DNA from: a virus | Virus genome (UHGV): UHGV-0090252 | DNA length: 64,000 nt | Reading direction: 5' to 3' (one strand) | In this document: in pieces, positions 3,740 to 15,982 of the stretch | Layout: every line of letters starts with the position of its first letter | How positions within the stretch are numbered: the first letter of the stretch is position 1 | Translations under genes and position numbers: made by a program | The notes under the pieces: model-generated | Database searches by the model: none | What the model was told of the DNA's origin: nothing | The model's input: only the letters and a program-made list of their open reading frames with translations

Positions 3740-3776
3740 AAAAAAAAAAAAAAAAAGGCTCCCGTAAAAAGGAGCC
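3740..3776. terminator. bidirectional rho-independent terminator with A17/T17 tract
   Basis: A17 homopolymer 3740-3756 followed by hairpin GGCTCC-cgtaaaaa-GGAGCC and a T-rich run; sits between convergent genes. Confidence 0.7.
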
Positions 3777-3783
3777 TTAAATT

Positions 3784-4155
3784 TTATTTTTCAGTATTCT
3801 TTGTGTTCTTTTCAGTAATAGCTTGGAGGGCTGATACTGATTGAGCCAGATTATTCACACTGTCAGAGAATTTATCAAGAGTTTTGGTAAGTTTTGCATT
3901 CTCACCCTTAACATTCTCTAACTGAACTTTCTGGTTCTCCATCCCTAACTGAATAAGTCTTATGTCAGACTGTAAATCACGAATAGCTGAGTAATTAGAT
4001 TTGCTATAATTATCTAGCTGCTGTAATTTTGTTGTGACAGACACCTCTTGCTTACCACTTGAAACTTGCATCGTGGTATACATCCCAATAACACTAAAAA
4101 TACCAACAACAATTGCACCAATATTATTTTTAAAAGCTTCCTCTATCCACTTCAT
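3784..4155 (-). CDS. membrane-anchored coiled-coil protein (function unknown)
   Basis: 123 aa; N-terminal hydrophobic helix IGAIVVGIFSVIGMY then heptad-rich region; downstream of the tail fiber genes. Confidence 0.45.
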   Translation of the reverse strand: MKWIEEAFKNNIGAIVVGIFSVIGMYTTMQVSSGKQEVSVTTKLQQLDNYSKSNYSAIRDLQSDIRLIQLGMENQKVQLENVKGENAKLTKTLDKFSDSVNNLAQSVSALQAITEKNTKNTEK

Positions 4156-4350
4156 TTATTTCTCCCCCTTAAAAGCTTTTTCTAAGTTATCTACGAATTC
4201 ATCATCAATAGGGGTGTCTGTCTTACCCGCAAGGTATCTTGCAAGCTTAAAGAACACTTTCTCAATCATGTATTCACTTAGAAGAGATAAAATGAGTTTC
4301 CAGAAGAAACTACCTAGATTTTTTAGGAGAATTGCTAGGATTGTAGGCAT
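4156..4350 (-). CDS. small membrane protein (holin-like, speculative)
   Basis: 64 aa with N-terminal hydrophobic segment; adjacent to the previous gene. Confidence 0.4.
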   Translation of the reverse strand: MPTILAILLKNLGSFFWKLILSLLSEYMIEKVFFKLARYLAGKTDTPIDDEFVDNLEKAFKGEK

Positions 4351-4429: not shown

Positions 4430-6763
4430 TTAAGCAGTCCTCACCCAAGCCATTAACTTATAGAACTGGTTAGTAACACTAAATGCTGAACCAGAACCTG
4501 TACCACCAGTGTTACCACTAACTGTATGACTGTGAGCACCAATACCAACACTGTGAGCATGGTTACCAGCAGAAGCGGCAGTACCACTTACAGAGTGGGT
4601 GTGAGCACCGTTAGCATCGGTGTAACCCGGCCCTGTACCAATGTAACCACCACCACCACCGGAATAGTGCTGTGAGTTCTGACCAATCCACGAAATAGAG
4701 TGGCTGTGGTTACCAGCAGATGAAGTAGAACCACTTACAGAGTGGGTGTGAGCACCAGTCGTGTTAGTGTTTTTTGTTCCGTAGTCAAAAGACGAAGTAG
4801 TAGCAGAAAAACTGTGTGTGTGTGAAGGTAAGTTACCAACAGATAACGTTACAGAATCTGAACCACCAGTTGTAGCAACATCTGAACCGTTAGCTGCTGC
4901 AATCCTGATTGTTCTACCTACACCATTGTTAAGGTACGTCCAAGTTAGACCAGGCAGTGCTGTATTAGGGTTAACGTTACTGTTAAACCACGTTACAATA
5001 CCAACAGGGTAGATTTTATTAAGGTCTGTTGAATCACTTACTGCCTGTGCAATCTTCTGGTCAGTTTCTGCTTTAGTGTATGCACCAATATCTGAAGGGG
5101 TTGGCTTCTGTGCAGTTGTGTACACCATAGCCCAACTTTTCTCAAAGCCATCACCATCTCTTGATGTCCTATACCACATACCACCATTCGCCCATTTAAA
5201 TCTTAGCTGCGCAGACGGTGTAGATGACTCAGACCCCTGATATAACTGAAGTAAAAGATTTGATGATGTAGCTCCAGTCTTGACATTATACAGCCCTGTC
5301 TTAGCATCCCAAGCAATAGCAGCATCATTATCACCTTCACCAGTTTTTCCTGCATACATGTATCTGGCGTTTGATGCTGAACCGGTATAGTACCTTTTAT
5401 CTAGGTTAGTCCAGTCTGATGGTTGAACCTGCCCAGTGATTGTTACATTCTTATTAAACTGGATATAGTTCTCTCTAAGAGACAGTTCAGTACCTAACAC
5501 CATCTCCCTGATAGTAAAGTTTCCTGAAGCATTAGTACCCATAAACCACTTTTTAGCACCATCAGAAGTATAACCTTGCAAGAACAAACCACCAGTATCA
5601 TTTACCCCTTGAAGCCTAATACCCTCTCCATCAGCCTTAATAATCTGACCTTGAGAAAAAGTATTCTTAGCATTAATTTTTGCAAGAGTGCTTAATGTTG
5701 CTGCCGGAATATATCTAGAGTCAATGTTAGTCCAATCTGAAGGTTGAACTTGACCAGTTACAGTTAGTGTTTTATTGATATTAACACTTGTCCCTACAGT
5801 AATCTTGCCACTAGTTTTGTAGTTTTCTAGAGCTACGTTATCACCTTCGTTACTATTACCAATGTACCATCTGTTGACACCTGTGCTATCAATTGCTTTA
5901 ATGTACAATGGTTGTGCAGCATTGGCATTCTGTAGCCTAATTGCTTCACCATCTTTTTTGAAAACACTCAGTTGGTTGAATGTATTAGTGCCGTTAAAAG
6001 TGTTATTACCAGCCAACTTTGCAAATCTTTGATTAGCCAATGTTTGGGTAAAGTATCTATCATCTAGGTTAGACCAGTCTGAAGGTTTAACCTGACCAGT
6101 GATATTTAAATTCTTATTAGAATTAATACCTGCTGAATCCAATGTCAATGTCGTGCCAGAGGCTTCATTTGATAATCCAAGAACATTTGAAGTATTAAAT
6201 CCAACATACCATTTATTAGTTCCAGATGGGTCTTGACCTCTAACATAGAGAGAAGGGCTATCAGTTGCACTTCTTAACAACAGTGCTTGACCATCTGCTA
6301 CAATTGTCTGCCTAGACTTAAAAGTATTTAGTACTTCTAATCTAGCATATCTAGCATCATTCTCAGCATTAGTTCTCATCCCAAGTTCATTAGGGCTTGG
6401 CTTATTAAGAGTATGATAAACAGTTGCAGACCTTGAAGCATCTGCAATAGTTAGTTTAAGACCATTTGCATTAATTTTAAAAGTCTTTAAAACATCCCCC
6501 ATAGTAATCTCAGAAGAGCCTGTAGGGTCAAAGACTGCCTTACCACCATAAAGTAACTTAACAATCCCTAAGTCACCCGTCATAGTGCTACCAGCAATCT
6601 GAACAAATCTTTCTAGTTTAAAAGACGCTAAGAAGTCTTGATAGGTCATTCGACGGTCTTCATCACCCAGCATTTCAGGTCTCTTTTTAACCCTGACATG
6701 AAGGAGGTCGTCTGAACGAATTGTATCAATTGAGTTTAATTCACTCAACTTGTAATCTGCCAT
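4430..6763 (-). CDS. tail fiber protein (long) with internal tandem repeats and C-terminal HxH array
   Basis: 777 aa; three ~105-aa internal repeats (ITGQVxPSDW[ST]N[IL]DxRY); C-terminus rich in HTHS/HSHS/HAHS motifs like metal-binding fiber tips; C-terminal AFSV..W..RTA shared with the next gene. Confidence 0.8.
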
Positions 6764-6809
6764 TATAAATTTTCCTCTTAAAAGGGGCTATACAGCCCCT
6801 GTAAAGAAA

Positions 6810-7958
6810 TTAAGCTGTTCTCTGCCATACATACAATACGAAGGATGGCTGTTCAACGCTAAACGCTTGACCAGAACCAGTTGTGCCAGTTGTGCCAGAG
6901 TGCGAATGCTCACCTGCTCCGGTTACTGTTACTGTTGCTGAGTGGTTGTGGGAACCAATTGCAACAGAATGGCTGTGAGCACCAATCCCCACTGTGTGAT
7001 TATGCGCACCAATTGCTACAGAGTGAGTGTGGTTGTTAGCTGTTGTCAGCGTAGCTCTTGGGTCATAGCTTGCCCCCTCAACTGATAAACCTCTCCAACC
7101 ACCATCAGCATAACCACGATTAATGAATGTTGTTTGTGTTAAACCAGCAGCACTGGTTGTTCTGTTACCATAGTCATAAGTAGATACAGTCTTTGTTCCA
7201 TAGTCAAACGTTGTAGTCCCTTTAGTACCGTAGTCAAAAGCACTGATAGAGGCCGTTGCACCGTGTGTGTGACCACCACCAGTGACGTATACTGAGTGAG
7301 TATGTGCAGGAATGTTGTTAACTGTCAGTGCAGTAGTCTGCGAACCAAACGTTGAACCAACTGGCCTAGAAGCACTATCATAACCTACAAGTGCTCTTCC
7401 TTTTGAAACTAACTCCCAAGTACCTCCACAAATTAAATATGTAGAAGGGTTTGCAGGATTCATAGAGAGATGGATAGTACCTACTGGATAAGAAGCCTGA
7501 ACAGCCTTGTACAAGTTATTTACTGCTCTTGCTGTAGCATACTTATCTGCATCCTCATTATAAAGGTTAGATGTCACCCAGTTCTGAACATTGCTTAACC
7601 CAACCTGTGCCTTAGTAGTATTGTGTGGGTTGCTCTTATCATCAATATGCTGTTGAATAAGATTATTAACCTCTTCTGAAGACATAATCTGTAGATTCGC
7701 TCTTGCCTCAGCTACATTAACAATATCTGATAAGTTATTTTCAGCAACTAACTGGAGAGCATTAATAACGTTATCTAAACCAATTTGTGTCTTAGTAACA
7801 CCATGTGGGTTATTTCTTAGGCTTGAGTGTGGAGCAAGTAATTGCTCAAGAGTACATCTCTTATCCTCGATACCCTGTTTAAGATGGAAGATATCACTAA
7901 GGTCAATTGGTAAGGCTGCTTGAGGCAAGGCACTAATTTGAATTTCACCTACTGCCAT
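6810..7958 (-). CDS. tail fiber protein with C-terminal HxH array
   Basis: 382 aa; repeated HTHS/HNHT/HSHS motifs and the same C-terminal AFSVE..VWQRTA module as the long fiber. Confidence 0.75.
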   Translation of the reverse strand: MAVGEIQISALPQAALPIDLSDIFHLKQGIEDKRCTLEQLLAPHSSLRNNPHGVTKTQIGLDNVINALQLVAENNLSDIVNVAEARANLQIMSSEEVNNLIQQHIDDKSNPHNTTKAQVGLSNVQNWVTSNLYNEDADKYATARAVNNLYKAVQASYPVGTIHLSMNPANPSTYLICGGTWELVSKGRALVGYDSASRPVGSTFGSQTTALTVNNIPAHTHSVYVTGGGHTHGATASISAFDYGTKGTTTFDYGTKTVSTYDYGNRTTSAAGLTQTTFINRGYADGGWRGLSVEGASYDPRATLTTANNHTHSVAIGAHNHTVGIGAHSHSVAIGSHNHSATVTVTGAGEHSHSGTTGTTGSGQAFSVEQPSFVLYVWQRTA

Positions 7959-7960
7959 TA

Positions 7961-15982
<8,022 letters not shown>

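Follow-up and report, generated by a model that had tools for sequence, protein, structure and literature searches.

Two Felixounavirus tail fibers with T4 gp37-like tips and a mosaic long-fiber shaft in the virus genome UHGV-0090252

Known fibers of Felix O1-like phages and the pair encoded in UHGV-0090252

We analyzed two adjacent genes, encoding a short tail fiber (STF) and a long tail fiber (LTF), in a stretch of 64,000 nucleotides of the virus genome UHGV-0090252 (hereafter the window). Fibers of this kind have been described in phages related to Felix O1, and the resemblance of both C-termini to the T4 fiber protein gp37 has been known since 2010 and 2015. The Felix O1 genome paper reported it for gp76 and gp77 (PMC3185647), and the VpaE1 paper found the same T4 gp37-like C-termini, together with conserved N-termini and a highly variable middle of the long fiber (PMC4690856). 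The receptors used in the genus Felixounavirus are lipopolysaccharide (LPS) structures, not proteins (PMC8594841, PMC4690856). In T4 gp37, residues 811-881 and the last 17 residues (1010-1026) form a collar, D10, into which a needle and head, D11, are inserted (PMC6957217). The needle contains seven iron atoms, each held by histidines of three chains, and alanine substitution of the iron-binding histidines abolishes plaque formation (PMC6957217).

Much of the architecture considered below has been known since 2025 from cryo-electron microscopy of a phage of the same genus, Bas63 (Escherichia phage JohannRWettstein; Sci Adv; PMC12609058). Its STF (gp26) measures 430 Å and its LTF (gp27) 630 Å. 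Both fibers possess a collar, a needle carrying histidine-x-histidine (HxH) motifs and a head, the STF having seven di-histidine motifs and the LTF six. According to the fitted models, the STF chain reverses at the head and its C-terminus completes the collar. The LTF contains five beta-helix repeat domains with triple-helix-and-turn motifs between them, like T4 gp34. The same authors saw a constant number of repeats across 18 Felixounavirus species, and they reported an unexpected sequence variability in LTF repeat domains 2-5 for which they offered three explanations (PMC12609058). Two preprints, PhageMaP on Bas63 and a 2026 study on receptor prediction, contain nothing specific to these fibers.

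The phage in the window is a Felixounavirus, that is, a myovirus related to Felix O1, and the two genes encode its two receptor-binding fibers. In nucleotide sequence, the 3.5-kb fiber region shows 100% identity to that of Escherichia phage vB_Eco_Tribble and 99.9% to that of vB_EcoM_Alf5. Matches occur in 237 phage records, which with few exceptions belong to Felix O1-like phages infecting E. coli or Salmonella. The STF belongs to the tail-fiber group phrog_2097 (E=1e-127), is 98.2% identical in amino-acid sequence to Bas63 gp26 and has its HxH motifs at the same seven positions. The LTF matches phrog_4277 over its full length and is 67% identical to Bas63 gp27 overall, with which it shares six HxH motifs and the five-domain shaft. 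Identity to gp27 reaches 84-100% in the N-terminus and tip and falls to 34-48% in the shaft cores, so the two LTFs carry different core types. A further difference is an extra histidine (HHxH) by the third LTF motif of Bas63, where the window fiber has NHSH. Orthology to Bas63 gp26 and gp27 and to Felix O1 gp76 and gp77 holds by both sequence and position, and the Felix O1 LTF tip is 78.6% identical to that of the window.

Taken together, we consider it highly probable (about 0.88) that both proteins are Felixounavirus receptor-binding fibers with T4 gp37-type, metal-stapled tips, and that their shaft cores are exchanged as cassettes. The limits of the two open reading frames coincide exactly with the region (4430-7958) singled out in a preliminary description of this DNA made from its letters. 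That description, which saw two fibers sharing one C-terminal module, was correct but already known, and what we add is limited to the cassette analysis of the long fiber.

The shared gp37-like tip

The LTF contains six HxH motifs (HTH at residues 648, 672 and 721, HSH at 686 and 744, and HAH at 735) and the STF seven (HTH at 219, 230 and 310, HNH at 319 and 337, and HSH at 328 and 351). Shuffled sequences of the same composition contained on average 0.27 (LTF) and 1.0 (STF) such motifs, and the observed counts were never attained in 20,000 shuffles. The C-terminal regions of the two fibers align with each other (LTF residues 558-777 with STF residues 136-382; 35% identity, BLASTP E=4e-29). 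They share the end AFSV...W.RTA, which in the STF reads GSGQAFSVEQPSFVLYVWQRTA. The common module and terminus noted in the preliminary description are thereby confirmed.

Both fibers are homologous to the T4 gp37 tip (Protein Data Bank, PDB, entry 2XGF, gp37 residues 785-1026). For the LTF, phmmer gave E=5e-18 and a family profile 2e-21; for the STF, the corresponding values were 3e-14 and 9e-27. Each of the six LTF motifs has an aligned counterpart among the seven of T4, and five of the seven STF motifs (230, 310, 319, 328 and 337) pair with T4 motifs 1, 4, 5, 6 and 7. The two fibers and T4 gp37 also have in common the sequence FDYGTK on the descending strand and a nine-residue IGAHxHxV period on the ascending strand. 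In the STF gene this period appears as a 27-nucleotide (9-residue) periodic array at 6940-7031, corresponding to residues ~310-340. The LTF needle additionally matches the Pfam family Phage_fiber (PF03335). The STF collar matches Pfam Gp10_C with 65.2 bits (cut-off 27) and the T4 gp10 structures 2FKK and 5HX2 with E=7e-6 to 3e-9. The LTF collar aligns to the STF collar; against the same Gp10_C cut-off it scored 23.5 bits when the full protein was scanned, and 29.8 bits once the needle had been deleted.

The motifs are well conserved. We compared the LTF with its 120 closest homologues, which are 67-100% identical to it and, for all but two, 775-795 residues long. Six HxH motifs are present in 115 of the 120 and the AWVRTA end in 119; in an alignment of 57 LTF homologues, the twelve histidines are 96-100% conserved. 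Residues 760-777 are nearly all invariant, and pairwise identity averages 96% over the region 556-650. Among 61 STF homologues, four motifs are 98-100% and three 74-80% conserved. Between 6 and 10 HxH motifs, most often nine, are present in 74 STF sequences, and the spacing found in the window STF (11, 80, 9, 9, 9, 14) is rare (3 of 74). The arrays are thus conserved, and the length of the needle, as the number of sites, differs among STF lineages. A metal-coordinating tip carried on two different shafts, as the preliminary description had suggested, is therefore supported by the homology to 2XGF, by the alignment of HxH on HxH and by the 96-100% conservation of the LTF histidines.

Two side observations concern the needles. 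In the 2+5 layout of this STF and of the Bas63 STF, (F/Y)DYG(T/N)(K/R) extra units stand in place of two descending HxH motifs. In the LTF needle, two 50-nucleotide stretches (4560-4609 and 4707-4756) are 90% identical; they encode 20-residue segments of the descending and ascending strands, in which 16 of 20 residues match. The corresponding segments of Bas63 differ more from each other. The similarity of the two stretches points to a duplication within the gene, or to gene conversion, in the recent past.

By analogy with the T4 structures and with the cryo-electron microscopy and AlphaFold models of Bas63, each fiber would be a homotrimer attached to the baseplate by its N-terminus, with the gp37-type tip at its far end. 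The LTF would attach through the 100-residue platform protein encoded upstream, whose Bas63 orthologue, gp25, is a trimeric platform for long-fiber attachment (PMC12609058), and the STF through wedge 2. The tip would begin with a collar of the gp10/gp11/gp12 fold. From there, the chain would descend along a thin needle, turn in a small head that probably contacts the receptor (LPS in the genus) and climb back. Following the T4 topology, the last ~20 residues (AFSV...W.RTA) would form a strand that rejoins the collar. Each HxH motif, contributed by three chains, would present six histidines to one metal ion on the axis (iron in T4), and these axial ions would staple the intertwined, rigid needle together. 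Judged by homology, the HxH arrays are thus likely to be structural metal sites, ~6 in the LTF and ~7 in the STF, and not receptor-binding sites.

The heads of the two fibers show no relationship in sequence and differ in size (~30 Gly-rich residues in the LTF and ~43 in the STF), so that they likely have different specificities and probably recognize distinct parts of the cell surface. The head is also the most variable part of the STF, with an identity to homologues of 0.14-0.25. The shaft of the LTF would be the longer one, with five beta-domains joined by short helix-turn linkers.

Compared with T4, the window fibers share the order of collar and HxH needle, FDYGTK, the nine-residue period and significant homology, and they differ in several respects. 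The T4 long fiber is made of four proteins (gp34-gp37), whereas the Felixounavirus LTF is a single polypeptide. T4 gp37 has seven metal sites as against six HxH motifs in the window LTF, and the heads are unrelated in sequence. The STF carries two descending and five ascending motifs, with no counterpart of the second and third motifs of T4. Finally, no gp38 gene adjoins the window fibers, and the C-terminal strand cannot be aligned with that of T4 by sequence.

Some results weigh against the assignment of gp37-type, metal-stapled tips. HMMER did not align AFSV...RTA to the T4 C-terminus, and the Gp10_C match in the needle-deleted construct covered only profile positions 3-83 of 139, short of the C-terminus. 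AlphaFold2 models of the monomers, built with family alignments, were of low confidence. The mean predicted local distance difference test (pLDDT) score was 61.8 for the STF, in which the collar (85-88) was best and the C-terminal strand (residues 372-380) reached 78-88. For the LTF the mean was 52.9, and the whole tip (residues 578-777) was below 50. These monomer models failed in the needle, which cannot be judged from them because the fibers are obligate intertwined trimers. When the STF model was compared with the PDB using Foldseek, no match fell below E=0.06; gp10 entries came top without being significant. The metal, the trimer and the receptor contact are taken from T4 and Bas63. In Bas63, side chains could not be modeled into the fiber densities, to which AlphaFold predictions were fitted (PMC12609058), so that for the genus, too, metal sites are so far predicted and not experimentally observed. 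The metal could also be other than iron.

Shaft cores and repeat number of the long fiber

The LTF shaft is built of domains that resemble those of other phage fibers. Pfam gp37_trimer (PF20744) matches three stretches of the LTF with 171.9 bits (cut-off 21.7). They correspond to three repeats that are 36-41% identical to each other in protein sequence (E=1e-25 to 3e-30). The preliminary description had placed three ~105-residue repeats at about 5350-6320. This was essentially right, the repeats spanning residues 143-474 (5342-6337) with ~110 residues each, and it holds at the protein level only. The three repeats are beta-domains 2-4; the conserved N-terminus contains domain 1, and domain 5 is a gp37_C unit. 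The AlphaFold2 monomer of the LTF likewise consists of five beta blocks with helices between them. The linker at residues 113-141 resembles that at residues 545-573 (45% identity, E=2e-6).

The fifth domain is related to tail fiber S of phage Mu. LTF residues 470-571 match Mu S residues 326-426 (PDB 8JU3, E=7e-21), including a KPxxxDxGAYT linker, and Foldseek found the same structure (E=5e-9). In the window LTF, unlike in Mu S, this domain is followed by a gp37-type collar and HxH needle. Foldseek also matched the LTF to the rod of T4 gp34 (4UXG and 5NXH, E=3e-6 to 4e-5) and to T7 gp17 (4A0U, E=9e-4), hence E=3e-6 to 9e-4 for these two proteins, with a probability of about 1.0. The trimeric beta-domains and short helix-and-turn connectors of gp34 (4UXE, 4UXG, 5NXF, 5NXH) and gp17 (4A0T, 4A0U) are similar to those expected for the LTF, while sequence identity is 12-19% and the number and order of domains differ. 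Template modeling scores were low in these comparisons, since a monomer model of low confidence served as the query.

In order to describe the variation along the fiber, we split 119 LTF sequences into segments and defined types by single-linkage clustering at 80% identity (values in Table 1). The types reassort; in repeats 1 and 2, the three commonest of each occur in every combination. The window and phage radambza are 92-100% identical in nucleotide sequence in the N-terminal part and the repeat 2 core, and as low as 33-45% identical in repeats 1 and 3 and in domain 5; their LTF tips are 96% identical. Compared with phage skuden and with Bas63, the repeat 2 core of the window is divergent too. 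The fall in identity (from 92-100% to as low as 30-45% against radambza and skuden) occurs at the edges of the cores, and such steps indicate recombination in the linkers. Cores of one type may also occupy different slots. A core containing …QYIEGVNxDGSARWWVGIGSNG… occurs in slot 3 of fiber P0030 and in slot 1 of fiber P0075 (87% identity over 70 residues, E=4e-45). In 46 of 357 cores, the best match in another slot is at least 70% identical, and the three cores of any one fiber are never more than 52% alike. The sequences thus indicate that the beta cores are exchanged as cassettes through recombination within the conserved linkers; the exchange takes place among phages and among slots and, it seems, across genera. 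Each slot draws on a common pool of at least 14-20 highly divergent beta-domain types. By eye, the same …QYIEGVNxDGSARWWVGIGSNG… type can also be recognized in repeat 4 of the more distant fiber P0241 (locus L001, 6001-9048).

We weighed three other explanations of these features. According to one of them, the variability of the shaft cores reflects relaxed constraint, with missense changes drifting at tolerant surface positions and neither recombination nor function involved. The cores are structural spacer domains, and this was among the three options of the Bas63 authors (PMC12609058). We nevertheless judge it improbable, as the variants form discrete types, 14-20 per position and down to 14-21% identity, next to an N-terminus and collar at 96-97%. 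Neighboring cores differ in their history, repeat 2 alone being common to the window and radambza, and types reassort, with one type at position 3 and at position 1 in different phages; together with the steps at the core edges, this mosaic pattern argues against simple drift. It leaves both variable host recognition and escape from defense as explanations. A second alternative, raised by the preliminary description, takes the repeats as a length-variation device, the number of which would readily change and reset fiber length and host range. Our findings on repeat number divide. A search of 1.8 billion representative proteins with a profile of the repeat unit gave one to eight matched stretches in unrelated fiber proteins and retrieved two full-length relatives with more copies, P0241 (1015 residues, five units) and P0242 (901 residues, four units). 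They lie at the same locus, with the same gene order, in phage contigs of 77 kb and 87 kb, respectively, and the baseplate genes of the five-unit contig are ~72% identical in nucleotide sequence to those of the window. The linkers following repeats 1 and 3 are also 82% identical over 82 nucleotides, the best DNA similarity between repeats (65-82% in this linker stretch). Among close relatives, the proposed change was not found: all 120 homologues have exactly three copies, in line with the constancy among 18 species noted above. Tandem Repeats Finder detected no DNA array over the ~330-nucleotide repeats, which are visible in protein sequence alone. Slippage as the mechanism of the repeats was rejected for this lack of an array and for too little DNA identity. 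The extra units of the five-copy fiber are old, since the most similar pair is just 56% identical, and tblastn found no isolated phage with this five-repeat fiber in the collection, the best match being 49% identical. Repeat number is therefore fixed at three within the genus and changes between distant lineages only, and a readily varied length seems to us as doubtful as drift.

The third alternative concerns the tip. The C-terminal module could serve mainly as a chaperone-recognition element, as the preliminary description had also considered, or as an intramolecular chaperone, lost once the fiber has assembled. Folding of T4 gp37 requires gp38 and gp57A (PMC5537660, PMC6957217), and in both fibers conservation is highest at the extreme C-terminus. 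However, Pfam and PHROGs revealed no gp38- or Tfa-type gene adjoining the fibers; the downstream genes, without Pfam chaperone matches, encode proteins of 64 and 123 residues with hydrophobic N-termini. For comparison, Mu S was crystallized with its chaperone (title of PDB 5YVQ), and no equivalent gene adjoins the window fibers. The annotation of the Bas63 record shows no chaperone over its first 45 kb, the structural module included (the rest of the genome, where a chaperone could still be encoded, was not scanned protein by protein), and Pfam found no peptidase or auto-cleaving chaperone domain in the fibers. In T4, moreover, the equivalent C-terminal residues belong to the mature collar. 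The idea of a chaperone-recognition domain is thus not supported, and we regard this alternative as very unlikely, more so than the other two.

Returning to the exchange of cores as cassettes, it is possible, although we hold this view only tentatively, that the shaft represents a cassette system of four slots (repeats 1-3 and the Mu-like domain) and not a passive spacer, and that its diversity is selected, for a reason that lies beyond the mosaic data. Selection might act either through lateral contacts with surface glycans, tuning host range independently of the tip, or through escape from host defense. In a challenge on Salmonella, LTF variants at residues 497 and 534 rose in frequency (PMC6669636). 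By their position in the window protein, these residues would lie in the fifth domain and not in the tip, a weak hint of selection on the shaft.

Gene order, related records and implications

The genes of the minus strand follow the order of Bas63 genes 23-29: wedge 2 (489 residues), wedge 1 (285 residues), the 100-residue protein, STF, LTF and the 64- and 123-residue proteins (Table 1). Wedge 1 is 99.6% identical in amino-acid sequence to its Bas63 counterpart, and the two small downstream proteins 96-97%. The LTF and STF genes are separated by 46 nucleotides. The genes thyA and frd converge on this cluster from the opposite strand. A strong bidirectional terminator hairpin at 3755-3778 lies after both small genes and before thyA and marks the end of the operon; the terminator scan gave no other convincing candidate. 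Promoter-like sites occurred at chance level (15 as against 12.5 expected). The 123-residue gene is annotated as a holin in radambza and skuden, and its product has weak Pfam matches to coiled-coil families. Both small genes follow the long fiber in every relative examined, including the four- and five-repeat contigs. Within the N-terminal part of the STF, for which the baseplate-binding role comes from the Bas63 paper (PMC12609058), helices are predicted at residues 67-106, and the family profile matches repeated short-tail-fiber motifs in PDB 9ZD7.

Table 1. Coordinates of the fiber genes, their parts and the adjoining genes in the window. Identities and types refer to the 119 LTF sequences and, for the repeats, to the beta cores.
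Feature	Residues	Positions	Strand	Description	Mean pairwise identity	Types
100-residue gene upstream of the fibers		7961-8263	minus	Bas63 gp25 orthologue, 97% identity
STF gene		6810-7958	minus	Open reading frame, 382 residues
STF N-terminal part	1-142	7533-7958	minus	Baseplate-binding part, then helix-and-turn motifs (NPHxxTKxQxGLxNV repeats)
STF collar	143-218	7305-7532	minus	T4 gp10/gp11/gp12/gp37 fold; Gp10_C, 2FKK/5HX2
STF needle and head	219-355	6894-7304	minus	Seven HxH (two before the head, five after); head ~263-305
STF C-terminal strand	356-382	6813-6893	minus	GSGQAFSV...YVWQRTA; would complete the collar
LTF gene		4430-6763	minus	Open reading frame, 777 residues
LTF N-terminal part	1-142	6338-6763	minus	Conserved baseplate-binding part, first beta-domain, first KPxPxxxG...E.D helix linker	97%	1
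LTF repeat 1	143-254	6002-6337	minus	Pfam gp37_trimer; variable beta core and conserved ITGQVxPSDWxNxDxRY linker	42% (minimum 21%)	15
LTF repeat 2	257-367	5663-5995	minus	gp37_trimer unit	42% (minimum 19%)	14
LTF repeat 3	364-474	5342-5674	minus	gp37_trimer unit; profile matches T7 gp17 (4A0T/4A0U, E=2e-5)	42% (minimum 14%)	20
LTF three helix linkers					68-88%	1-4
LTF fifth beta-domain	475-579	5027-5341	minus	Pfam gp37_C (PF12604), 58.4 bits (cut-off 22.5)	59%	18
LTF collar	580-647	4823-5026	minus	Aligns to the STF collar; Gp10_C	96%	1
LTF needle and head	648-750	4514-4822	minus	Six HxH (three descending, three ascending); small Gly-rich head ~689-719	76%	9 (91/119 in one)
LTF C-terminal strand	751-777	4433-4513	minus	GSGSAFSV...MAWVRTA; conserved end
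Small gene		4156-4350	minus	64 residues, hydrophobic N-terminus, PHROG of unknown function
Small gene		3784-4155	minus	123 residues, hydrophobic N-terminus, PHROG of unknown function

Some of the matching database records deserve comment. In the Tribble record (OX016465.1, 40190-43718), the depositor's feature "E. furg BREX site" (a BREX recognition motif) falls inside the fiber region; it was not located in the window. In the Bas63 GenBank record (MZ501086.1), the 382-residue gene (bas63_0026; locus L002, 2054-3202) is labeled "long tail fiber protein" and the 784-residue gene "tail fiber protein", the reverse of the naming in the cryo-electron microscopy paper (STF gp26, LTF gp27). An LTF that is 71% identical to that of the window (P0035) is encoded on an 88-kb contig labeled Methanobrevibacter gottschalkii at NCBI. 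MG065664.1, named Campylobacter phage A132, has a tip 81% identical to that of the window, and one record named after Staphylococcus also matches the fiber region. These three kinds of records probably reflect contamination by Felixounavirus or mislabeling.

The practical value of the analysis lies in correct annotation and in guiding the engineering of host range in Felixounavirus for the diagnostics and therapy of Salmonella and E. coli. For such engineering, the tip and collar provide a conserved scaffold; the STF varies most in its head region, and the natural variation of the LTF resides in exchangeable shaft cassettes. The typing of cassettes refines the variability noted in 2015 and 2025 into a recombination model that can be tested.

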